Origin: Candidatus Kaiserbacteria bacterium
GTDB lineage: Bacteria; Patescibacteriota; Minisyncoccia; Phycocordibacterales; UBA2100
Direction of reading: 5' to 3'
NCBI GenBank assembly: GCA_016217965.1
Contig: JACRFI010000016.1
Coordinates: 65,837 to 129,836, forward strand
Length of the DNA stretch: 64,000 nt
In this document: positions 1 through 9,954 of the stretch, one piece after another
Position numbering within the stretch: position 1 is the stretch's first letter
Layout of the letters: each line of letters starts with the position of its first letter
Made by a program: the position numbers and the translations under genes
Notes under the pieces: generated by a model
The model's database searches: none
Told to the model about the DNA's origin: nothing
What the model saw: the letters and a program-made list of their open reading frames with translations, nothing else

Positions 1-1
1 T

Positions 2-898
2 GCACTTCTTGACCAGTCATTTCCTACCGAGAGATATGAGATTATCCTCCCAGATGTCTCAGGCAACCAGATGAGCGCCGCGCTCTCGGAGATGCCGGCA
101 ATGAAATCGGAGCGCCCGTCTGTTGTGCCGGGAAGGGGTGGTAATTTCAGTGAACGCATAGAGCGAGCACTGTCCATCGTCCGCGGGCAATATGTCTGCT
201 TTACTATTTCCGATTGTATTGTTCCGCACGATTGGCTTCTTTCTTTTCTTGCAGCATACAAACGGTATCCAGGCGCTGGTGGTGTTGGCGGGTATGTTCG
301 CGTCAGTCCTGAACACTACACGATATACGACGAGTTGCAGCACTATGAGTTGGCGCAGCGTTTAGGCGTGGAGCGAGAAAAGAAGTTTCTAACAAGAATA
401 TACGAGGTTTGTAATCAGGCATTTTACCAGAATCCGACAGGTGATCTCGCAAATATTTCGTACTTGAAAGAAGTAATCCCAACCGATCTTGCAGGAGCGA
501 GGAATATTTATGATCTGGAACTGCATCTTAAGATAAGCGCGATGCGAGAAAGGCCTCTAGTTTTTATTCCGAAGGCCGTGGCTCGCGATACACCATTGTC
601 CGCGAGCGAATTTCTTCGCATTGAGTTCGAGCGCGGTTTTTTGAACCGCCTAGCGCGCGAATCAATCTATGCGCTCGGGAAGTATCGTCGCCAAACACTC
701 ATGGCAGCACTTGCACAAGCGGTGCGCACGACGCTTCGATACAGAGATATGCGCTACGGGGCTCTGAGCTTTCTAGCGAGTATTGCGCGTTGGGTGGGGA
801 ATATCGGGGCGTCACACGTACGTCTGCGCCAGAGAGCACTGCGTGAATATCTTGATCGACGCCGAGAGTACGTCGTGCCAAACAGTGTGATAAAATAA
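2..898 (+). CDS. glycosyltransferase family 2-like protein, C-terminal part (5' end runs off window)
   Basis: Frame is open from nt 2 with no upstream stop. The upstream in-frame residues ...ERYEIILPDVSGNQ resemble a degenerate GT-A 'DxD' region. Remaining sequence has no stronger motif. Confidence 0.4.
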   Translation, partial: ALLDQSFPTERYEIILPDVSGNQMSAALSEMPAMKSERPSVVPGRGGNFSERIERALSIVRGQYVCFTISDCIVPHDWLLSFLAAYKRYPGAGGVGGYVRVSPEHYTIYDELQHYELAQRLGVEREKKFLTRIYEVCNQAFYQNPTGDLANISYLKEVIPTDLAGARNIYDLELHLKISAMRERPLVFIPKAVARDTPLSASEFLRIEFERGFLNRLARESIYALGKYRRQTLMAALAQAVRTTLRYRDMRYGALSFLASIARWVGNIGASHVRLRQRALREYLDRRREYVVPNSVIK

Positions 899-913
899 GA
901 GTTAGTCAAATAC

Positions 914-942
914 TTGACATATATCGCTGTGTGGGGTATTAT
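914..942 (+). promoter_or_regulatory. near-consensus sigma70 promoter (TTGACA - 17 nt - TATTAT)
   Basis: TTGACA at 914-919, a 17-nt spacer, then TATTAT at 937-942. The only in-frame start of the overlapping ORF (GTG at 931) lies inside the -10 region. Confidence 0.6.
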
Positions 943-949
943 GCGAACG

Positions 950-1385
950 ATAAAGATAATCTCCACGTTGGTTGCGAGACATTCGTACAGACTTCATGGG
1001 GTGTGTCTGGATGCCTCGTAACCGTACGGGTGTCAGGTGACACTCGGCGAGAAGTACGGGGGGAGGTTATCGGTGTGAACCGATTTACCAAGACTGCCTA
1101 CTCAGCGGGGTTTTCGTTGGGCGTTCTGGCGGGGGCCGTAACCTTGCCGTCTACTCCAGCGGAGGCGCGGTGCTGCGGAAGCACATGCCAGCAAAAGTGT
1201 AAGGATACCCATCACATTGGGGGCCATACACTCCAGGGTTGCTACAACTACTGGGGCGGGCTGTGCAAGAAGCCAGCCGCGAGCAAGCAGGCAGTAGGCT
1301 CTCGCGCTCTGAAGCCGGGCACGAGCAAGGCACGGTAACGCGTGCTGAGGGGGCTCGGTCCAACCGGGCCTCTTCGATTTTGGAA
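950..1385 (+). ncRNA. candidate structured non-coding RNA of unknown class (about 430 nt, GC-rich)
   Basis: Lies downstream of the consensus promoter. No translatable ORF follows the predicted TSS. Many GC-rich hairpins are present (e.g. GCACGGUAACGCGUGC). It ends in a 7-bp GC stem (GGCUCGG/CCGGGCC) followed by a U-rich tract (UCUUCGAUUUUGG) at about 1346-1385. The class could not be assigned by eye. Confidence 0.35.
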
Positions 1386-1392
1386 AAGCGCC

Positions 1393-2103
1393 CTATTTTA
1401 AGAATCTGTTTCCCAACACTATTACCGACACAGGTTGTTCCATCGCACTATCAACATCAAGAAGAGTGATGATCACATCATCGTTGAGAGCGCCAAGTGG
1501 GCATGTCGCTAGTGAGAGCGCTTCGCTGACAATTAGGATGTTTTGAGAGAGATGGCCGGCTTCTAGCAGTGAAAGCACATACGCAAAATCTCGATATTTT
1601 TGCGCGCTGCGATCCCATGCTGCGGTACATACAATGACTGCGGTTGGCGATGCATCGCCATTGATTTTCACGTATGAAGAAGGAGAGGCGTCATCCGGGA
1701 GTTTCCAAAGTTGACGCAATACGTGGGTGTCAGGCTCATAATGGAGCAGTATACGTTCACAATTCTCGACAGTGAAGGAGATTACATATATTTCAATAGG
1801 ATACAGACCACCCCCTGAAGGATATGGTCGTCTACCCGATCCACTTTTGTGGGCTGCATAGTAAAGGAGGGAAGATAATGCGCTGAGAGAAACAGGCGTT
1901 CCGCTAAATTCTTTGCGTGACTTGCGCTGCTCTAATGCCTCTGCAAGTGATAGCTTCAGGGGCAACGGCTCTGGCAACGGCACAACCTCCATTCGTTCAT
2001 ATCGTTTCGGTCCGTTAGTGGCGTTAGGTGGTTGAGTGAGCCGATGCTGGTTCTTTCGTATGTACTCGTGAATGCTTGGGATAAAATCGTCCATACACAT
2101 CAA
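1393..2103 (-). CDS. SagB-type (McbC-like) FMN-dependent dehydrogenase, nitroreductase fold
   Basis: Motifs RKSRKEF (nitroreductase RRSxRxF), RRPYPSGGGLYPIEIYV (SagB signature PSAGGLYP) and a C-terminal ATCPLGALND. The gene overlaps the YcaO stop by 4 nt (2100-2103). Confidence 0.8.
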   Translation of the reverse strand: MMCMDDFIPSIHEYIRKNQHRLTQPPNATNGPKRYERMEVVPLPEPLPLKLSLAEALEQRKSRKEFSGTPVSLSALSSLLYYAAHKSGSGRRPYPSGGGLYPIEIYVISFTVENCERILLHYEPDTHVLRQLWKLPDDASPSSYVKINGDASPTAVIVCTAAWDRSAQKYRDFAYVLSLLEAGHLSQNILIVSEALSLATCPLGALNDDVIITLLDVDSAMEQPVSVIVLGNRFLK

Positions 2104-3521
2104 ACGAATGGATGGGGCACGTCGGCGAACACTTCCGAACGCGCGAGATATCCAAATTGCTTCGGTATGCTATGCAAACGTTCTCCCCCTTCGCAGCGAT
2201 TTTTTTCATTGAGATAGAGAGGTTGCAATTCAGGTATGACGGCAAATACGACATAGAATCCGAGGACATTCTTTTTGGAAACCCCTAGGTCTACATACAG
2301 GCATTCATATCCTGTTCTCTGGCACCATTTTGTGATTCGCTCCAGATGTTCTGGCGCTACGTCATTTTCCCACTCTGCGTTCTCAAGCGGGGCCTCCCTT
2401 CCGCTTGTGAGGAAATCCATCATATGCGCCTTCGCAGGATCAGCCCAGTAGATATGCCTATCAGTAAATGTAATATTTTTTTCATCCCGAAGCGTTGCAT
2501 GGTTTCTGACGAGATCCCGAGCATTCTTTCGTGCACGCAGCGCTTCAAGGAGCGCTTTTTCTGCCGCATGCGAGGCAGATGCATGTGCGCTGGTCCCAAC
2601 CGAAAAAGGCGGGAGATTTGCAGAATCGCGCACAACCACCATTATGACGTGGGCAGGCGCATCCGTAATGAGACGGACGAAATGCACGCGTAAATTGTAA
2701 CGGTCGCATCTTGCTAGAAGCTCATGCAATGCAGAGTTGTTTTCTGCGATGGACGCTCTCGCTACTTGGGGAAGCGAAAGTCTATTCAGCCACATGATCA
2801 TAAACGCATCCCGCTCGATGGCTTCGAGCAGTCCCGAAAGTATCGCCTGCGTCTTATCAGGATGTGTCGCGACACCCGTCGTTATCGGCTCTCTCAGCAT
2901 AGGCTCCTTCCGATCTCGCATTGCATCGTGGGCATGGACCCGACTCACGATTTGTGCGGGTAGTAGCAGCGATTTTTTTTGCACGAGCGAGCGTCCTTTT
3001 GTCCATAGAAACTGTGTAGCCTTAGTAACGGACAGTCTCGGCACGGCGTTACGTTGGGTATTTGAGTAGCCTGCAAAGCGTAACGGATCAATAGCTTTTC
3101 CACCCCCGAGTTGATCGAATGTTGAACAAGCCGTCCCCCGGAAGTAATCGTGCTCGTGTCTCCATATATGGCGCTCCTGCGCTTCCGAGACGGCAGCTCG
3201 TAATGCCTCTTTGTCGCTCCTGACAGAGAGACCGCCCGCCTTTTCACCGCCCATATCCACCCACCAGGACCGCATAGGTGGCTCATCGGGGAAAGCATGA
3301 GCGGTCCCAAAGGCGGTTGCAATGTTCGCATCGGCAAGTTTCCGATAGTTGCGCAGCACGTCTTTTAGGTCAGGTCGCGACAATCCGTTTCTTCTGGCAT
3401 CTTTAACTGCTGAGAGGCCAGCTGCAGCCGCGATGTGAGTTGCAAACAAGCGGACGCCTCTTTCCGAAATCGTCCATTCTTCATCGTGTTTCGTAGCCGT
3501 CGGGATCAAAAAATAGCCCAT
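2100..3521 (-). CDS. YcaO-domain protein (azoline-forming cyclodehydratase, TOMM D-protein type)
   Basis: YcaO hallmark segments ITTGVATHPDKTQAILSGLLEAIERDAFMIMW and GTSAHASASHAAEKALLEALRARKNA. There is an N-terminal region of about 200 aa whose function is not recognisable. Confidence 0.85.
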   Translation of the reverse strand: MGYFLIPTATKHDEEWTISERGVRLFATHIAAAAGLSAVKDARRNGLSRPDLKDVLRNYRKLADANIATAFGTAHAFPDEPPMRSWWVDMGGEKAGGLSVRSDKEALRAAVSEAQERHIWRHEHDYFRGTACSTFDQLGGGKAIDPLRFAGYSNTQRNAVPRLSVTKATQFLWTKGRSLVQKKSLLLPAQIVSRVHAHDAMRDRKEPMLREPITTGVATHPDKTQAILSGLLEAIERDAFMIMWLNRLSLPQVARASIAENNSALHELLARCDRYNLRVHFVRLITDAPAHVIMVVVRDSANLPPFSVGTSAHASASHAAEKALLEALRARKNARDLVRNHATLRDEKNITFTDRHIYWADPAKAHMMDFLTSGREAPLENAEWENDVAPEHLERITKWCQRTGYECLYVDLGVSKKNVLGFYVVFAVIPELQPLYLNEKNRCEGGERLHSIPKQFGYLARSEVFADVPHPFV

Positions 3522-3605
3522 GCACGCATACTATCACGCAGGGTATGAGGGTTATGCACATGACCCTATTAGACACTATGCGAGCGCGCAATTATCATTT
3601 GCAGT

Positions 3606-3992
3606 ATGGTAGTAAAGATGCGCGGGCATACCCTTCGAGGGATTGGTTTTGTTCGAACGGTCGGATTGTTTTTACTTGGCGCTTTTGTCGTTTTTCTCGC
3701 AATAGTATTTCCAAGGTGGTTTGGTGCTGGGTCTACACACGGTCTTTCGGGTACTGGTATCGCGCTTGCCGATGCACCGAGTTGCTCTGGCGGCGGAGGT
3801 TGCGGGGGAGACGGCAACTGCAGCGGTTGTAGTACTTGCAGCGGTTGCACTGGAGATAGCTGCGGCAATGGCTGCGGTGGTGATGGATGTAGTTGTAGTG
3901 GCGATTGTGGTTGTGGCAATGGTAACGGAGGTGGCGATGGTGATGGTGGGGACGGAGGAGGAGGAGGAGATTCTTCGGCTTGTGGAAGCTGA
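3606..3992 (+). CDS. candidate TOMM (microcin B17-like) precursor peptide: hydrophobic leader plus Gly/Ser/Cys/Asp-rich core
   Basis: 128 aa; the alternative start is the ATG at 3618. Residues 1-45 are a basic, then 20-aa hydrophobic stretch (VGLFLLGAFVVFLAIVFP). The C-terminal 68 aa is CSGGGGCGGDGNCSGCSTCSGCTGDSCGNGCGGDGCSCSGDCGCGNG...DSSACGS, with 14 Cys almost all flanked by Gly/Ser. It is divergent from the YcaO-SagB pair across an 84-nt spacer. Confidence 0.5.
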   Translation: MVVKMRGHTLRGIGFVRTVGLFLLGAFVVFLAIVFPRWFGAGSTHGLSGTGIALADAPSCSGGGGCGGDGNCSGCSTCSGCTGDSCGNGCGGDGCSCSGDCGCGNGNGGGDGDGGDGGGGGDSSACGS

Positions 3993-4010
3993 TGCAAAAA
4001 AATAGCGAAC

Positions 4011-5147
4011 ATGCTCTCAAACAGCAATTTGCGTACGTTTCTTGTTGCAATGGTCGTGAGTGTAATGGCGATTCTGGGAATTTTTTACTGGTGGCTTGGT
4101 ATTAAAGTAAACAATGATGCAGCTCAAGAAGTCAACCTTGTTATCGAAGGCGTACGACCAATAAGTATTTACAACCACACAGGGGACAACGCATATATCG
4201 TTAATGACCTTTCTGCAGCAGTGATTTCCGTTTTGGAATACTATGGTGCAAATTTGTCGCAAAGCAATCTCAAAAAGATAAATGGCAGATTTTGGGACGA
4301 CAGTAATCCAAGCGCTTTGCACCAGCTGGAAGACGTCAAGCTTCTCACGGAAGAACTTGGCTACAGTGCAACGATTGAAGTCGCGGAATCCATCGCAGAT
4401 TTCAAGAAATATTTCTCAGGTATACCAACACCTGTCATTTTCTCGCATTTCATTGAGATCGACCAAAATCCGGAGATTCAATTCAAGCCTATGGGAGTTC
4501 TCATCGGCATGTTGGATAGTGAGCAATCTGTCATTATTCACGACTATTATTTTGGCTACAACAAGAAACTCTCGTATTGGCAATTTGCGAGGCTTGGTGC
4601 ATACCCTGCGCAAGTTTTGGTGATTAAGCCGAAAATCCCGAGGGTCGGTGCACCTGATGCAAGCGAGGAATACGTGCGAACGGAATCGATGGATAAGGCA
4701 GAACCGATCATAAATAAGATAACACTTGGGCGTGTAGCACAGGCGCAGCAAAAATATAGGATCGCCGCAAGTTACTATAGCGCTGCGTTAAAGCACCCCG
4801 ACCGGGATATAGTACCTCCGTATTACAAAGTAGTCGCGCTCAACGGCGGTGTTGGCAGTTATATACGGCTCGATGGTGATTATGATTCAGCATACGAGCT
4901 CGCGAAATTGGGGGAGGAGTTCAATCAAAATCTAGACGAGCCCTATGGGGATTATTGGCCGGGATTTGTCGACGGCACTAACCTCATTACAGATCAGTTC
5001 GCCGGTATATACTACTGGCTCGGTAGGATATATGAACACAAGGGTGATGTAGCGCAGGCTAAGGCGAATTACGAACACGCGCTTGAAATATATCCATATG
5101 GACCGTCTATTGATGCGCTTGAACGCATCAAAACTGAGAGCGAGTGA
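4011..5147 (+). CDS. membrane-anchored protein with peptidase-C39-like (papain-fold) domain and C-terminal TPR
   Basis: N-terminal TM helix. The segment NDLSAAVISVLEYYGANLSQSNLKK aligns by eye to the C39 motif DCGxAxLxMxxxYYGxxxSLxEL, but the nucleophile Cys position is not Cys. A later PVIFSHF/IIHD His region follows. The C-terminus has a TPR-like repeat (YYWLGRIYEHKGDVAQAKANYEHALEIYP). Confidence 0.45.
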   Translation: MLSNSNLRTFLVAMVVSVMAILGIFYWWLGIKVNNDAAQEVNLVIEGVRPISIYNHTGDNAYIVNDLSAAVISVLEYYGANLSQSNLKKINGRFWDDSNPSALHQLEDVKLLTEELGYSATIEVAESIADFKKYFSGIPTPVIFSHFIEIDQNPEIQFKPMGVLIGMLDSEQSVIIHDYYFGYNKKLSYWQFARLGAYPAQVLVIKPKIPRVGAPDASEEYVRTESMDKAEPIINKITLGRVAQAQQKYRIAASYYSAALKHPDRDIVPPYYKVVALNGGVGSYIRLDGDYDSAYELAKLGEEFNQNLDEPYGDYWPGFVDGTNLITDQFAGIYYWLGRIYEHKGDVAQAKANYEHALEIYPYGPSIDALERIKTESE

Positions 5148-5941
5148 TGTTTACAAATCGAAGAGTGTTTGTCGTAGGAAGTTTCTCGTTATTTCTTTTG
5201 GCAGCGTTGCTGGGTAGGCAACAAGTACAAGCCATCGGCGAGACCGCATTATTCCTCGTTTCTCCGACGGCAGAGCGTGCGTATGAGTATGGTGCGCGGC
5301 ATTTTGATGCAATTCATGCACGGGATTACGACATGGATCGCGCTGTATTTTTTTTCAAGGAGGCCGAGAAAATCGATGCCGATTATCCGTATCTCCAACA
5401 TCAGCTCGCAAGAATTTCGTTTCTAAAAGGAGATTTTGCAAATGCTCTCCGCCGAATTGATCGTGAAATAGAGAATAATCCATCCCCCTCGCTGTCTTCC
5501 TTTTATGTACGAGGACTTGTGAAAGGATTCGCCGGCGATTACCTTGGTGCGATACCTGATTATCAGAAGTTCCTGGAATCTGAACCCGCGAATTGGGCTG
5601 CTTCCAATGATCTCGCGTGGGTATATTTGAAGGCGAATCGTCCGAGTGAAGCGCTTGTGGCGATTGACGCAGCGTTATCAGCGAACATAGGTAATCCATG
5701 GCTCCTCAACAGCAGGGCGACGGCGCTGTTCGAACTGGGCCGCCTTGAAGAAGCGCGTGATGCAGCCCGGCTTTCCTTGTATGCGGTCAAGGGAATAACA
5801 AAAGAAGACTGGCTCAAAGCATACCCCGGCAATGATCCTCTTATCGCGCCAGAAGGCATGCATGCGTTCCAATCGGCTGTTCTTGCGAATATGCACAGTA
5901 TTCTTATTGCGATGGAGAAGGAGCAGAAAGGTGTGAGATAA
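5144..5941 (+). CDS. TPR-repeat protein with N-terminal signal/anchor
   Basis: N-terminal hydrophobic segment, several TPR-like repeats, and a 4-nt overlap with the upstream gene. Confidence 0.5.
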   Translation: MMFTNRRVFVVGSFSLFLLAALLGRQQVQAIGETALFLVSPTAERAYEYGARHFDAIHARDYDMDRAVFFFKEAEKIDADYPYLQHQLARISFLKGDFANALRRIDREIENNPSPSLSSFYVRGLVKGFAGDYLGAIPDYQKFLESEPANWAASNDLAWVYLKANRPSEALVAIDAALSANIGNPWLLNSRATALFELGRLEEARDAARLSLYAVKGITKEDWLKAYPGNDPLIAPEGMHAFQSAVLANMHSILIAMEKEQKGVR

Positions 5942-5953
5942 TCCTCTTATCTT

Positions 5954-6646
5954 ATGGCTCATAACGAGGGACAGCGTCGTTGGCGGCTATTTTCAGCTCG
6001 AGAGATATTGCTTTTGGGAGCATTCGTTATTGTGCTTGCCGCCGCATATCAGTTTGACGGAGCGAGGCTTCCTATCACGTCAGCGGAAACGCAATTTGTG
6101 GAGCGTTCGGCATCTGGCCTGCAGATTGTGCCAGCCTCGTGTCCCTCGAACCCGCATGGCGGGCAATCATGCTATTCGCAAAGTTATTATCAAGGCTACT
6201 ACCAATCGTATTATCAAGGCTACTACCAATCTTCATACTGCACGACGCAGTATCAGTGCTCGGGCGATTCGAAGCGCGTCATCGACAGCTGTAATCCTGC
6301 GGGGACGATACTAACCTGCTCTTCGTCGCAGACATGTGTCAACGCGAGCTGCGTATCCATAGATGCTTCTCTCACGGTTGTTCCCAACCTGCTCCGTTCG
6401 GGAGAAACGACCCAGGTAACGTGGAAAGGCACGAATGTGTCGTCGTGCACGGTCACCGAAGATAACCCAGGATTCACGGATTCGTGGAGCTGTAACTCTG
6501 TTGCCTCGTGCACCGCAAACCATACAAATACATCGAGTCCCATCGACGCGGAGACAAAATACACGTTGACGTGTACCGCGCCTAGTGGCTCAACAATCAT
6601 AAAGACAGCGACTGTTCGCATCATCCCGGTGTGGATCGAGGAATGA
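5954..6646 (+). CDS. membrane-anchored Cys-rich protein with tandem YYQ(G/S) repeats
   Basis: N-terminal TM helix. The repeat is SYYQGYYQSYYQGYYQSSY, visible in DNA as ctactaccaatcgtattatcaaggctactaccaatc. 15 Cys are scattered through a Ser/Thr-rich ectodomain. Confidence 0.5.
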   Translation: MAHNEGQRRWRLFSAREILLLGAFVIVLAAAYQFDGARLPITSAETQFVERSASGLQIVPASCPSNPHGGQSCYSQSYYQGYYQSYYQGYYQSSYCTTQYQCSGDSKRVIDSCNPAGTILTCSSSQTCVNASCVSIDASLTVVPNLLRSGETTQVTWKGTNVSSCTVTEDNPGFTDSWSCNSVASCTANHTNTSSPIDAETKYTLTCTAPSGSTIIKTATVRIIPVWIEE

Positions 6647-6662
6647 TGGTACACTGATTTAC

Positions 6663-7076
6663 ATGAAAGCTATCGCTGTCGCATATCTCGGAATATTCAT
6701 TGCCTTCACAGCGATGCCGGCCGTTACATCCGCGCAGGAGATGTATCAGGACGATTCATCAGTTCTTCGCTCTGAAATACGTCTCGCGCTTCTTGCAGAC
6801 GCCCGTTCCAGCGAACTTACCGATGAGGAAGTTGCAATGCTCGTTGAGTCACTTGCGGGGGAGGCGGAGGCACAGGGAATAGCGCAAGAATTTCTGCCCG
6901 AGCGGGCACAAACCATGCGGGCAGACGCAATTGCTAATTGGTGGGAAAACCTCTCGGAGCCTATGCTTTACGGGATAGTGCTCGTTGCGCTCGCGCTCGC
7001 GATGGTCCTCATGAAGCGCATCATTGATTCGCACCACCACGCTGCCCGCCCGCCGGATACGCCCGCAGCTGTGTAG
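6663..7076 (+). CDS. small secreted/membrane protein (signal peptide plus C-terminal TM)
   Basis: Signal-like N-terminus MKAIAVAYLGIFIAFTAMPAVTSAQE, a C-terminal hydrophobic helix and a His-rich tail. Confidence 0.4.
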   Translation: MKAIAVAYLGIFIAFTAMPAVTSAQEMYQDDSSVLRSEIRLALLADARSSELTDEEVAMLVESLAGEAEAQGIAQEFLPERAQTMRADAIANWWENLSEPMLYGIVLVALALAMVLMKRIIDSHHHAARPPDTPAAV

Positions 7077-7104
7077 TTGCGTATTGGAACCCTCTCCTAT
7101 ATAG
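7077..7104 (+). promoter_or_regulatory. possible promoter of the r-protein operon (TTGCGT ... TATATAG)
   Basis: A -35-like TTGCGT and a -10-like TATATA/ATATAG 15-16 nt downstream, about 90 nt upstream of rplC. Confidence 0.3.
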
Positions 7105-7194
7105 TACTCGCACCTCGAAAGAGGCATCCCAAGTCCCCATACGGGACCACTGGCTCGGAAATAGGTCCGCGCTAGCTGCGCGGATAAACTATAT

Positions 7195-7803
7195 ATGGCA
7201 ACAAAGTTCATGCTCGGCACAAAAGGCCGAATGACACAGGTTTTCGATGAGAGCGGCGCAGTCCATGCGGCGACCATCATTACTGCCGGACCCCTCACTA
7301 TTACCCAGGCAAAGACCGCAGAAAAAGACGGATACGAGGCGTCGCAGGTCGGTTTCGGCGAACGAAAAGAAAAGAATCTTTCAAAAGCAGTGAAAGGGCA
7401 TTTCAAGGAGCTCGGTAATTTCCGATATGCTAAGGAATTCCCCATCTCTGGTGAAAGGGGAACAAAGATTGACGTGTCCGTGTTCGTGCCGGGGGATGCT
7501 GTCACAGTCTCTGCCATCTCGAAGGGCAAAGGGTTTCAGGGCGTGGTGAAGCGCCACGGATTCCACGGAGGCCCGAGGAGCCATGGCCAGAAGAACAAGG
7601 AGAGGGCGCCGGGTTCTATCGGCGGCGGAGGCCGTGCGGGCGGACGAGTCGTCAAGGGAATGCGCATGGCAGGAAGGATGGGGGGAGAGCGCGTAACGGT
7701 GCGGAACCTTCGCGTCTTGCAAGTGGACACGAGTTCGAATACGCTCGTCATTTCCGGCGCAGTACCGGGAAAGCCGGGAACGCTTGTCGAAATACGCGGT
7801 TAA
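7195..7803 (+). CDS. rplC: 50S ribosomal protein L3
   Basis: MATKFMLGTKGRMTQVFDESG... with a typical L3 N-terminus and a Gly-rich loop. Confidence 0.95.
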   Translation: MATKFMLGTKGRMTQVFDESGAVHAATIITAGPLTITQAKTAEKDGYEASQVGFGERKEKNLSKAVKGHFKELGNFRYAKEFPISGERGTKIDVSVFVPGDAVTVSAISKGKGFQGVVKRHGFHGGPRSHGQKNKERAPGSIGGGGRAGGRVVKGMRMAGRMGGERVTVRNLRVLQVDTSSNTLVISGAVPGKPGTLVEIRG

Positions 7804-7937
7804 ATTCGAAATCCGAATATCGAAATCTGAAAAAATATGAAATCAAAAATTAAAAATCAGAAAAGTTTGAAGTTTAGAATTTTTCCAAGTTGTGCTTTTT
7901 CGAATTTCGTGCTTCGTGCTTCGAATTTTTAAAACAT

Positions 7938-8687
7938 ATGGAATCACCAATTTACAACACAGCAGGCAAAAAAACGGGAACAATTGCGCTTCCTGAGAGT
8001 ATTTTTGCCGTCAAATGGAACGACTCTTTGATGTATCAGGTCGTTACCGCCATGCAAGCGAATGCACGCACGCCCGTTGCCCATGTGAAAACAAGGGGGG
8101 ATGTGAGGGGCGGCGGCAAGAAGCCATGGGCGCAAAAAGGAACCGGCCGCGCTCGGCACGGCTCTATCCGCTCGCCCATCTGGCGAGGCGGGGGAGTGAC
8201 GCATGGCCCTAGGAGCGACAAATCATATGCGCGCACGATACCAAAAAAAATGCGCATTAAGGCTCTCACGATGGCACTTTCCCAAAAGTTCAAGGACGGT
8301 GGGGTCGTGTTCATAGATTCTCTTGGCCTCGAGGAGCCGAAAACCGCTGCTGCGAAAAAAGTGCTTGTTTCTGTCAGCGGTGCACTTGGCCTCAAGGGTC
8401 TTGTGGAAAAGAAGGCAAATGCAGCGTTTGTCGCGCTTGCCGATCCTCGCGAATCGGCGACAAAAAGTTTTCGGAATCTCGGCAATATCGAGTGCAAAGC
8501 AGTGCGAGAGCTTAACCCGGTCTCTGTGCTCAAGCATTCGTATCTCATCATTGAAAATCCGGAAGCAGCGCTCGCAATTCTTTCCCACCGTATCGGAGAA
8601 AAGGTTGAAACGACGACGCCACGAGCCAAAAAGCCGAAGAAAGTCAATATGAAGGCCGTGCACGCTGCCGAAAAAGGAGACCAGTAA
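7938..8687 (+). CDS. rplD: 50S ribosomal protein L4
   Basis: MESPIYNTAGKKTGTIALPESIF...RGGGKKPWAQKGTGRAR. The start was moved to the internal ATG at 7938. The C-terminus has a basic extension. Confidence 0.9.
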   Translation: MESPIYNTAGKKTGTIALPESIFAVKWNDSLMYQVVTAMQANARTPVAHVKTRGDVRGGGKKPWAQKGTGRARHGSIRSPIWRGGGVTHGPRSDKSYARTIPKKMRIKALTMALSQKFKDGGVVFIDSLGLEEPKTAAAKKVLVSVSGALGLKGLVEKKANAAFVALADPRESATKSFRNLGNIECKAVRELNPVSVLKHSYLIIENPEAALAILSHRIGEKVETTTPRAKKPKKVNMKAVHAAEKGDQ

Positions 8688-8727
8688 TTGAATTCAAATT
8701 TGAAATTTTAAATTTAAAATTCAGCAT

Positions 8728-9102
8728 ATGGCACTATTTTCAAGAAAAAAGAATAAAGAGGTTGAGGCAACAACGGCGCCAGCGCCTGTCAGCACCCGCG
8801 TGGAGCCGAAAACAACTGTCGCCGACCTCTCACATGTCCTCATGAATCCGCGCATTACTGAAAAAGCGACGATGGCCTCGGCAGAGGGCGTGTATGTTTT
8901 TGATGTCGCGGAGCGTGCAAACAAAAAAGATATTGCACGCGCGGTCGCGCAGTACTACAAAGTAATTCCGCGAAAGATATCGGTTGTGACTATTCCTGCG
9001 AAATCGACACGAAGCACGAGGACGGGAGTGCGAGGTGTCAAACAGGGAGGCAAGAAAGCCTATGTGTATCTTAAGAGGGGAGAAACGATAACCATTGCAT
9101 AA
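8728..9102 (+). CDS. rplW: 50S ribosomal protein L23 with N-terminal extension
   Basis: ...LMNPRITEKATMASAEGVYVFDVAERANKKDIARAVAQYYKV... Confidence 0.9.
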   Translation: MALFSRKKNKEVEATTAPAPVSTRVEPKTTVADLSHVLMNPRITEKATMASAEGVYVFDVAERANKKDIARAVAQYYKVIPRKISVVTIPAKSTRSTRTGVRGVKQGGKKAYVYLKRGETITIA

Positions 9103-9105
9103 CAT

Positions 9106-9954
9106 ATGAGCATGAAATTTTACAAACCAACGACAGCGGGCCAGCGAGGCATGAGCCGGGTCAATTTTCGCGCTGCCCTCTCTGGAAAAGGGCGAGCGAA
9201 ATTCCTCACAGAAGGAGGAAAGCGCGCAGTCGGAAGAAACGCGTTTGGCCGCATCACGACGAGGCACAAGGGTGGAGGGCACAAACGCGTGTGGCGCGAT
9301 GTGGATTTCCAACTCAATAAGAAGAACATCCCTGCGCGCATCGCCACGATCGAATACGACCCAAATCGCTCCGCGTTCATCGGGCTTGCTATCTACAAGG
9401 ACGGAGAGAGGCGGTATGTGGTAGTTCCTAAAAATATGAACGTTGGAGACACATTTCTCGTCTCTACTGATGCTCCTATTGCGCCGGGGAATCGGCTTCC
9501 TCTTGCGAATATCCCCGTTGGCACATTCGTATTCAATATAGAGCTCTCTCCAGGCGGAGGCGGCAAAATTGCAAGGAGTGCGGGCAACTTCGCGGAGGTT
9601 GTTGCGCAAGACGCGGGATACACACACCTCAAAATGCCTTCGACAGAAGTTCGTCGCGTCATCGGAACTGCGTGGGCAACTGTGGGCGAAGCATCAAATG
9701 ATGAACATCGTTTGCAAGTCATCGGAAAGGCTGGCCGCACGCGTTGGATGGGCGTCCGCCCGACGGTTCGAGGCTCCGCAATGAATCCTGTGGACCATCC
9801 ACACGGAGGAGGTGAAGGAAAACAAGGGAGAGGCCTCCGTCGAGCTAAATCTTTGTGGGGCAGGCCAACAGGGAAGGGACAGAAGACCCGCCGCCCGAAG
9901 AAATACTCAAACGTATTTATCGTTTCTCGCCGCCGTGTAGGTAAGCGAAAATAG
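9106..9954 (+). CDS. rplB: 50S ribosomal protein L2
   Basis: MSMKFYKPTTAGQRGMSRVNF...GGGEGKQGRG, the L2 signature. Confidence 0.95.
   Translation: MSMKFYKPTTAGQRGMSRVNFRAALSGKGRAKFLTEGGKRAVGRNAFGRITTRHKGGGHKRVWRDVDFQLNKKNIPARIATIEYDPNRSAFIGLAIYKDGERRYVVVPKNMNVGDTFLVSTDAPIAPGNRLPLANIPVGTFVFNIELSPGGGGKIARSAGNFAEVVAQDAGYTHLKMPSTEVRRVIGTAWATVGEASNDEHRLQVIGKAGRTRWMGVRPTVRGSAMNPVDHPHGGGEGKQGRGLRRAKSLWGRPTGKGQKTRRPKKYSNVFIVSRRRVGKRK

Follow-up and report, generated by a model that had tools for sequence, protein, structure and literature searches.

A stretch of 64,000 nucleotides from Candidatus Kaiserbacteria, which belongs to the Parcubacteria of the Candidate Phyla Radiation (CPR), carries genes for a YcaO cyclodehydratase and a SagB-type dehydrogenase in a locus that adjoins the ribosomal-protein operon. 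We refer to this whole stretch (contig JACRFI010000016.1, positions 65,837 to 129,836) as the window. Divergent from the pair lies a precursor-like gene for a small protein with a Cys/Gly-rich tail, followed by the genes p4, p5, p6 and p7. We estimate a probability of roughly 55% that the two enzymes heterocyclise this Sec-type, membrane-anchored envelope peptide before its export, and that they do so without an RRE, the recognition element of RiPPs, peptides made by the ribosome and modified after translation. The locus would then be a CPR variant of the thiazole/oxazole-modified microcin (TOMM) or linear azol(in)e-containing peptide (LAP) systems. Within this overall scheme, the best reading is that the substrate of YcaO is the tail of an envelope protein and not a classical toxin precursor.

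We compared 79 genome loci centred on relatives of the YcaO. In addition, an inverted search of metagenomes centred on p5, a tetratricopeptide repeat (TPR) protein, gave 404 relatives, for which 80 loci were retrieved; 38 of these have at least 3 kb upstream of p5. Profile scans of gene neighbours (Pfam/NCBIfam) covered the open reading frames (ORFs) at 71-7076 of the window and the rest of the 15.8-kb L001 contig, and these are the scanned neighbours meant below. The same divergent layout of precursor-like gene and YcaO-SagB recurs in dozens of independent CPR contigs, which takes the arrangement far beyond chance. In most YcaO-centred loci the precursor ORF is the immediate divergent neighbour of YcaO, and the window holds no other precursor-like ORF. 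Precursor counts are lower bounds, as members such as L161 and L134/135 were recognised only by manual inspection.

Profile scores support an assignment of the window's YcaO to the TOMM/SagD type and not to the RimO-associated or McrA-thioamidation type. The protein matches PF02624 at 1.4e-47 (163 bits, cut-off 25.7) and scores 218.0 bits with TIGR03604, the TOMM SagD family, for which the curated cut-off is 219.25. Scores are much lower for TIGR03266 (McrA thioamidation; 53 bits, cut-off 365) and TIGR00702 (generic YcaO-kinase family; 50 bits, cut-off 75.65). A YcaO outside the TOMM clade had been named beforehand as a refuting outcome for the initial annotation of this locus; with the next-best profiles at about 50 bits, this is not what we found. 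The family alignment shows conserved acidic/Arg motifs at E113/E116/R117 and E233/E236/R237, which we take to be the ATP/Mg2+ site. An AlphaFold (AF2) model made from 30 family members reaches a pLDDT of 90.3 and is poorly ordered only in residues 1-45. Its top match in Foldseek is LynD (4v1v), an azoline-forming cyanobactin heterocyclase (E 2.6e-22, TM-score 0.70 over the whole query), followed by the YcaO peptidase 7u58, thioamidating archaeal YcaOs, TruD, E. coli YcaO and McbD; the top matches are all YcaOs. The C-terminus reads ...VPHPFV, with P469, P471 and F472 invariant and H470 at least 90% conserved. This PHPF end is a PxP rather than a full PxPxP, and resembles the Pro-rich PxPxP cited as canonical for azoline-forming YcaOs (PMC12338566).

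The description of the second enzyme as a SagB-type dehydrogenase also holds: it passes TIGR03605 (SagB family peptide dehydrogenase) with 112.6 bits against a cut-off of 78.4, and matches PF00881 at 4.8e-17. SagB lies directly downstream of YcaO in about 70 of 80 related loci. Its K169-Y170 pair is well conserved (K in 64 of 66 family members, Y in 66 of 66); we assume this pair to be a hallmark of TOMM dehydrogenases, for which a literature search gave no confirmation. The stop codon of YcaO (TGA, 2102-2100) overlaps the SagB start by 4 nt when translation begins at TTG 2103, or by 1 nt when it begins at ATG 2100, the start picked by the Logan gene caller, so the genes are coupled either way. 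The ORF coordinates, the 4-nt overlap from TTG 2103 and the 84-nt divergent spacer of the initial annotation are all correct.

In several genomes another YcaO, or another YcaO-SagB pair, is located close to the first (L006 2667-5891 (-), L009 5812-7317 and 10643-12580, L019 8905-11314). One of these additional genes is an ORF of about 1070 aa, of which the C-terminal part is YcaO-like (24% identity). A YcaO-SagB pair of the same family is also present in L032 and L045, labelled Bathyarchaeia/Bathyarchaeota, and L032 additionally has a precursor-like gene, p4 and p5. Misbinning or inter-domain transfer could explain these pairs.

An E1-like/RRE leader-binding partner, a defining feature of TOMM systems, was sought and is absent. 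The scanned neighbours gave no E1/ThiF/Ocin-ThiF or RRE-type match, and a tblastn search of the 64-kb window with fused E1-YcaO proteins matched through the YcaO halves only, with no separate E1. The initial annotation was right in seeing no E1-like partner. It had also suggested that a spare N-terminal region of about 200 aa in the YcaO might take the place of the C-protein, and this part does not stand: about 100 aa fall outside the Pfam YcaO profile and about 45 aa outside the compact domain in the model. In the AF2 model the N-terminal ~45 residues form a single helix and the compact YcaO domain starts at around residue 50. An RRE of some 90 residues would not fit into ~45 loosely ordered residues, and a hidden RRE/E1 domain in the YcaO N-terminus is thereby ruled out.

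In the precursor-like gene, low-complexity GGY/TGY DNA keeps three frames open. The Logan annotation picks 3724-4005 (L001 3923-4204), in another frame than the Cys-rich gene. BLAST of the 128-aa ORF against L022, L012 and L005 gives E-values of 1e-5 to 8e-7, all in the 3606-3992 frame, and in this frame one constant architecture is found in more than 60 independent loci. Since these homologues share their architecture despite very different tails, the frame is real, and the Cys-rich ORF is a genuine gene as the initial annotation had drawn it and not an antisense artefact. Two other candidates for the true gene, the antisense Pro-rich ORF 3569-4027 (-) and the Logan frame 3724-4005 (+), have no comparative support; the 3606 frame alone is conserved. 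Given the open frames, a spurious 93-aa product of the Logan frame may be present in public protein collections.

The family architecture consists of an N-terminus 'MVxV/I', a 19-residue hydrophobic segment, a polar linker of 11-27 residues, the motif (A/V)-x-A-D-(A/V)-P and a tail. This tail comprises 25-100 residues of Gly, Cys, Ser, Asp and Thr and is essentially free of Lys and Arg (K/R). Every family member has the A-x-A-D-x-P motif 11-27 residues past the transmembrane (TM) segment; AHADAP is the commonest version and ALADAP the one in the window. The mean Kyte-Doolittle value over the 19 TM residues is 2.54 in the window ORF (family mean 2.2), and the net charge before and after the segment is +4/+1 (family means +3.2/+0.3). 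By the positive-inside rule, such positive charge before the TM segment and near-neutrality after it suggest an N-in/C-out topology. A predicted Sec-type N-terminal signal or anchor combined with an A-x-A-type site is found in the window's precursor (A53-L-A55 before D56) and throughout the family. Within its 73 residues, the tail D56-S128 contains 13 Cys, 11 Ser, 2 Thr, 31 Gly, 9 Asp and no Lys or Arg, and all 13 Cys of the 128-aa product lie in its last 69 residues. The Gly/Ser/Cys/Asp-rich character noted initially is therefore correct, with the Cys count lowered from 14 to 13. The leader is conserved while the tails diverge widely, which is the leader/core pattern of RiPP precursors with a signal anchor as leader. 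Two members extend beyond the tail: L039 43-861 (-) encodes 272 aa ending in a Hint/intein-like module (CFIAG...IVHNC), and L004 1-570 (-) has a C-terminal extension of about 90 aa after a Cys/Gly/Asp tail.

Of the 38 p5-centred loci with at least 3 kb upstream, 27 contain YcaO/SagB, and 26 of these 27 have a precursor-like gene. In the remaining 11, YcaO/SagB is missing from the locus, and several of these span the full 10 kb on both sides. Still, a precursor-like gene followed by TPR genes is present in nine of these 11 loci (eight distinct sequences). YcaO-SagB thus occurs in about 70% of the loci with anchored-tail and TPR genes. As the anchored-tail and TPR genes persist without YcaO, they represent the constant module, and YcaO-SagB a frequent accessory. 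Judged from predicted sequence features, the 'precursor' would be an envelope protein anchored in the membrane, with extracellular TPR proteins as its usual genomic companions.

The tails of the two groups are not alike. After removal of near-duplicates, 51 YcaO-linked members could be compared with 7 unlinked ones, the latter being a small group. The median Cys fraction of the tail is 14% for YcaO-linked members against 3% for unlinked ones (Mann-Whitney p = 1e-4). Four or more Cys are present in the tails of 36 of 51 linked members and of none of the seven unlinked (Fisher p = 6e-4), and a His at position x of the A-x-A-D motif in 35 of 51 against none of seven (Fisher p = 8e-4). These differences run in the direction that would be expected if YcaO/SagB act on tail Cys and read the His-bearing motif.

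The genes downstream of the precursor were initially regarded as processing, export or immunity components. This view finds no support: the scanned neighbours include no ABC transporter and no recognisable immunity-type gene, and the downstream products are all extracytoplasmic or membrane proteins. The first of them, p4, was described as a C39-like/TPR protein. It does combine a C39 fold with TPRs, a likeness at the level of the fold, the C39-like domain covering approximately residues 42-207 (nt 4134-4631). The expected PF03412 match and the catalytic Cys are both missing. C39 profiles (PF03412/PF13529) gave no match even at E-values up to 10 in eight family members, and a sequence-profile search of the PDB with the N-terminal domain of p4 gave no significant match and no C39 chain. 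p4 has no Cys at all, and the C39-like domain also lacks Cys in four close and seven distant homologues; the place of the catalytic Cys may be taken by a Leu. As a consequence, p4 cannot be a processing cysteine protease and is better regarded as a pseudo-peptidase; an active C39 protease is ruled out. Catalytically inactive C39-like domains are known, for instance that of HlyB. With full-length p4 as query we obtained four homologues.

The most consistently co-conserved partner is p5, present in 27 YcaO-centred loci at 28-51% identity. In most p5-centred loci and in 11 of the YcaO-centred ones, p5 is followed by a p6 homologue. p6 contains 12 Cys and YYQ repeats, including a perfect 24-nt x2 tandem repeat at 6185-6231 that encodes YYQGYYQS; together with a GGA x5 repeat, this accounts for the tandem repeats in the locus. 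Residues 13-105 of p6 resemble the precursor-like ORF of L021/L027, which has YSQGYY repeats after a VHADAP motif; in p6 the corresponding residues are T-S-A-E. Possibly, p6 is a paralogue of the 'precursor' extended by a further domain. Weak p7 homologues are found at the corresponding place in L022, L016, L014 and several of the p5-centred loci.

In related Paceibacteria loci the precursor is followed by another TM-anchored helical/TPR protein of about 380 aa (hel380), then by a TM-anchored DsbA-like thioredoxin (PF13462), a TM-anchored rhodanese (PF00581), p5 and p6. DsbA-like (CPYC) and rhodanese genes lie inside the precursor-TPR operon in L022 (3137-4332 (-)), with the same positions in L003, L009, L014, L020, L021, L026, L098, L107 and L147. 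In the window we searched for the DsbA-like, rhodanese and hel380 genes and found none of them. A somewhat different arrangement is seen in L082, the closest long relative (YcaO 54% identical), where a phosphoribosyltransferase + PQQ-type beta-propeller gene (4657-6381 (+)) lies between precursor and YcaO and an unassigned 366-aa gene (8576-9676 (+)) follows SagB; L083 is alike in both respects. The precursor tail of L082 is (GD)n-rich with a single Cys.

On these grounds we propose the following scheme. In the cytoplasm, YcaO would read the linker/AHADAP-type region directly, because no RRE or E1 partner is available. YcaO and SagB would then turn tail cysteines, and possibly Ser/Thr, into thiazoles (and oxazoles). 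Once modified, the flexible tail would be taken across the membrane by the precursor's own N-in/C-out signal anchor; the general Sec/YidC route would stand in for a dedicated ABC exporter. Outside, the tail may be freed by cleavage after A-x-A, a signal-peptidase-I-type -3/-1 site, or may stay anchored, and would be bound by the Cys-less C39-fold/TPR protein p4 and the TPR protein p5. The product could be a polyanionic azole-bearing surface or metal-binding peptide, or else an antibiotic. The export logic draws support from the TM hydrophobicity, the positive-inside bias and the K/R-free tails seen family-wide, from the N-terminal TM or signal segments of all operon partners, and from the TM-bearing DsbA-like and rhodanese genes in related operons. 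Bufferins provide a published precedent (PMC11626156).

A number of observations weigh against this scheme. The YcaO stays 1.25 bits below the trusted cut-off of TIGR03604. Eight distinct loci have the anchored-tail and TPR genes with no YcaO/SagB within up to 10 kb, suggesting that the anchored protein has a YcaO-independent role, though the enzymes could sit elsewhere in those genomes. Some YcaO-linked tails have only 0-2 Cys (L089, L092, L141), hence Cys would not be the sole target, if those tails are targets at all. The motif in the window carries Leu, not His. The A-x-A site lies 11-27 residues past the TM segment, farther than the usual c-region for signal peptidase I. Cytoplasmic enzymes and an exported tail would also demand an ordered process of modification and then export. 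Finally, we infer the modification of the tail by YcaO from adjacency and correlation only.

The YcaO-less loci speak for the main alternative, which we consider unlikely. Here the anchored Cys/Gly/Asp-rich protein would be an unmodified envelope protein of the TPR operon, for example a metal- or cation-binding or a disulfide-bonded surface protein. YcaO/SagB would act on some other substrate, and the adjacency would reflect conserved synteny. Apart from the eight distinct loci in which the anchored tail and hel380/p4-p5-p6 occur without the enzymes, the DsbA-like and rhodanese genes of related operons suit exported free thiols. Also, the predicted topology puts the tail outside whereas the enzymes are cytoplasmic, and an RRE for leader binding is missing. 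Against an unmodified protein speak the Cys-richness and the motif His, both of which follow the presence of YcaO-SagB. Further points against it are that this gene is the nearest divergent neighbour of YcaO in most loci, that the window has no alternative precursor candidate, and that azole-forming YcaOs act on just such a Cys/Ser/Gly-rich composition.

It is improbable that YcaO performs other chemistry on the tail, either thioamidation with sulfur relayed by the rhodanese or ATP-dependent peptide cleavage as in 7u58. YcaOs are mechanistically versatile, and the top structural matches include both 7u58 and the archaeal YcaOs that perform thioamidation. The rhodanese in related operons and the nearly Cys-free state of some tails would fit as well. 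Against this, SagB, which has no role in thioamidation or cleavage, is coupled to YcaO in most related loci. The best profile is that of TOMM SagD, with TIGR03266 far below its cut-off, and no TfuA is found among the scanned neighbours. The rhodanese, moreover, is TM-bearing and absent from the window. A 2025 survey mentioning CPR YcaOs reads them as McrA-thioamidation enzymes (PMC12153355); for the window's YcaO family, the SagB coupling and the profile scores argue against this.

We give very little credence to a classical secreted antibiotic of the microcin B17 kind, as initially proposed, with a leader cut by the C39-like protease and downstream genes for export and immunity. The Gly/Cys/Ser-rich core does resemble McbA in composition, a YcaO is paired with a dehydrogenase, and p4 has a C39 fold. 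However, an E1/RRE partner like McbB is absent from the 64 kb, and the C39-like domains of p4 and its homologues have no Cys; without a nucleophile in p4 and without an E1 partner this reading is largely refuted. In addition, neither an ABC transporter nor a pentapeptide-repeat immunity gene occurs among the scanned neighbours. A conserved TM signal anchor of about 55 residues forms the leader, the tail differs from McbA in being strongly acidic, and the anchored-tail gene also accompanies TPR genes in YcaO-less loci.

That the Cys-rich ORF is no gene at all and the true frame is 3569-4027 (-) or 3724-4005 (+) can be dismissed despite the open frames and the choice made by Logan, since 'MVxV', the TM segment and A-x-A-D-x-P are conserved in more than 60 loci from the 3606-3992 frame only and the BLAST matches lie in that frame.

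Coordinates of the locus are given in Table 1. The genes from the precursor through p7 are tightly packed: 18, 12 and 16 nt separate them, and p4 and p5 overlap by 4 nt. They therefore have the appearance of one operon that continues into the ribosomal-protein operon. All operon partners of the precursor have N-terminal TM or signal segments. The spacer contains a promoter-like TAGACA-17-TATCAT at 3570-3598 (+), a consensus match only. The -10 element TATCAT ends 7 nt before ATG 3606 and no Shine-Dalgarno sequence is visible upstream; going by this promoter match only, the precursor mRNA may be leaderless. An Rfam scan of positions 1-8000 gave no match.

Table 1. Features of the YcaO-SagB locus and its divergent operon, in window positions
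Feature	Position	Strand	Remarks
SagB-type FMN (flavin mononucleotide)-dependent azoline dehydrogenase	1393-2103	-	236 aa from TTG 2103 or 235 aa from ATG 2100
Stand-alone YcaO cyclodehydratase, no fused E1/RRE	2100-3521	-	473 aa
Divergent intergenic spacer	3522-3605	.	84 nt, promoter-like site inside
Precursor-like gene	3606-3992	+	128 aa: basic N-terminus, TM, linker, ALADAP motif, Cys/Gly/Ser/Asp-rich tail
Predicted signal-anchor TM segment of precursor	3657-3713	+	residues 18-36
Precursor (A/V)-x-A-D-(A/V)-P motif, A53-L-A-D-A-P58	3762-3779	+	candidate cleavage and/or recognition site
Candidate precursor core/tail D56-S128	3771-3989	+	from composition
p4: N-terminal TM helix, C39-fold pseudo-peptidase domain, TPR repeats	4011-5147	+	378 aa
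p5: TM/signal sequence and TPR protein	5144-5941	+	265 aa; TPR_19 at 2.8e-15
p6: TM-anchored, Cys-rich, Tyr/Gln/Ser repeats, conserved C-terminal domain	5954-6646	+	
p7: small protein, N-terminal signal sequence, C-terminal TM	6663-7076	+	features from sequence
rplC, first gene after p7	7195-7803		

On the other side of the locus, the ORF at 931-1338 (+) is convergent to SagB and encodes 135 aa with 8 Cys and no family match. Small Cys-rich ORFs with a hydrophobic N-terminal stretch are also found downstream of SagB in L002 (8206-8529), L004 (4667-5062), L005 (4754-5140), L014 (9867-10154) and L021 (9681-10007); none of the five is BLAST-similar to the ORF in the window. Farther out, a gene for a teichoic-acid-type CDP-glycerol glycerophosphotransferase (PF04464) at 71-898 (+), running off the window start, flanks YcaO-SagB. 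This gene, of about 750 aa, is seen at L001 7030-9297 and likewise flanks the pair in the two closest relatives (L081 2889-5153, L082 10180-12420). Beyond it lie nucleotidyl-transferase and epimerase genes, pointing to an envelope-polymer context.

If the tail is indeed heterocyclised and exported, YcaOs can work without an RRE or E1 on a membrane-targeted substrate. CPR cells would gain an unusual surface or metal-binding component, which may matter for an episymbiotic lifestyle. CPR/Patescibacteria have tiny genomes and almost no secondary metabolism, yet many lineages retain the module next to their ribosomal-protein operon, as the 404 metagenomic relatives of p5 illustrate. A more far-reaching idea, which we put forward tentatively and with more doubt than belief, is that of widespread, CPR-specific 'anchored azole peptides'. 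These would combine a signal-anchored, polyanionic Gly-rich tail, an RRE-less YcaO/SagB pair reading the linker/AHADAP region, general secretion and, outside the cell, two TPR proteins, one of them a receptor with a Cys-less C39 fold. They would form an azole-decorated surface or metal-binding structure of ultra-small episymbionts rather than a diffusible toxin. For YcaO RiPPs such a biosynthetic logic would be new: it would do without a leader-binding domain and without a dedicated transporter, and would use a pseudo-protease for binding. On the practical side, the precursor is mis-called in at least one public annotation, so mining tools that expect a short cytoplasmic leader and an RRE may misjudge such clusters.

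How does the locus relate to systems already described? LAP clusters in CPR were reported at prediction level in 2020, with a count of 110 across 93 CPR genomes, 51 being Parcubacteria and 89 having a nitroreductase beside the YcaO (Sharrar et al. 2020, mBio, PMC7298704). That work also describes a Microgenomates LAP cluster with a peptidase and an 84-aa precursor. As in the Parcubacteria/Microgenomates clusters presented there, the window has a YcaO beside a nitroreductase-type dehydrogenase and an adjoining small Cys/Ser-rich ORF, and it almost certainly belongs to the set already reported. A TOMM cluster in a reduced CPR genome was therefore known beforehand, which weakens the notability that the initial annotation attached to it. 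The passages of that paper considered here make no mention of the signal anchor, A-x-A-D-x-P, the absence of RRE/E1, the TPR/C39-fold operon or YcaO-less loci. Our literature search gave no account of signal-anchored YcaO substrates with an A-x-A-D-x-P leader, of an RRE/E1-less version, of a Cys-less C39-fold/TPR partner, of an envelope operon beside rplC, or of YcaO-less versions with Cys-poor tails. Overall, the general phenomenon is published and the biosynthetic logic is unusual.

Microcin B17 (McbA, McbBCD, McbEFG; PDB 6gos) shares with the locus a Gly-rich core with Cys/Ser, a YcaO with McbD-like fold and an FMN dehydrogenase with a Lys-Tyr pair. In contrast, neighbour scans of our locus gave no McbB (E1-like/RRE) scaffold, no McbEF-type ABC exporter and no McbG-type immunity. 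With these three microcin B17 features missing, the system is not of that type. Instead of a short cytoplasmic leader it has a TM signal anchor (~55 aa plus linker), and its core is polyanionic. McbD is also a weaker structural match to the window's YcaO than LynD. LynD and TruD (PDB 4v1v, 4bs9) are the closest solved structures and perform ATP-dependent azoline formation. Both are fusions of about 750 aa with an N-terminal E1-like part and leader-binding RRE, whereas the window's protein is the YcaO domain alone.

Partner-independent YcaOs are known, for example from bottromycin biosynthesis, where they act without an E1-like/RRE partner; they rely on a follower peptide, and one azoline or a macroamidine results. 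The YcaO of the window is similar in having no such partner, and differs by its coupled dehydrogenase and its membrane-anchored substrate candidate. As for p4, the C39 domains of PCAT/AMS transporters (LahT150 6mpz; PCAT1 8vp3) are the obvious reference. Unlike these, p4 is not fused to an ABC transporter but to TPR repeats, is membrane-anchored with the domain predicted outside, and has no Cys at all and no Pfam C39 match.

The export logic is closest to that of bufferins, which are RiPP precursors with a Sec signal whose Cys are heterocyclised in the cytoplasm before export by the general pathway, giving copper-binding products (PMC11626156). By analogy, the locus would have in common with them the N-terminal Sec-type signal, a long, Cys-bearing, protein-like precursor and a product acting outside the cytoplasm. 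The enzymes differ, since bufferins depend on MNIO/DUF2063 and contain 5-thiooxazoles, whereas YcaO/SagB are found here; the scanned neighbours gave no match to MNIO (DUF692) or DUF2063. The signal differs too: bufferins have a canonical cleavable signal peptide, and here the TM segment is followed by a linker of 11-27 aa before A-x-A, so that the likeness is one of logic only. If our reading holds, it would extend the Sec-signal logic of bufferins to azole peptides. The system is best filed as a LAP/TOMM kind that is bufferin-like in its export logic.

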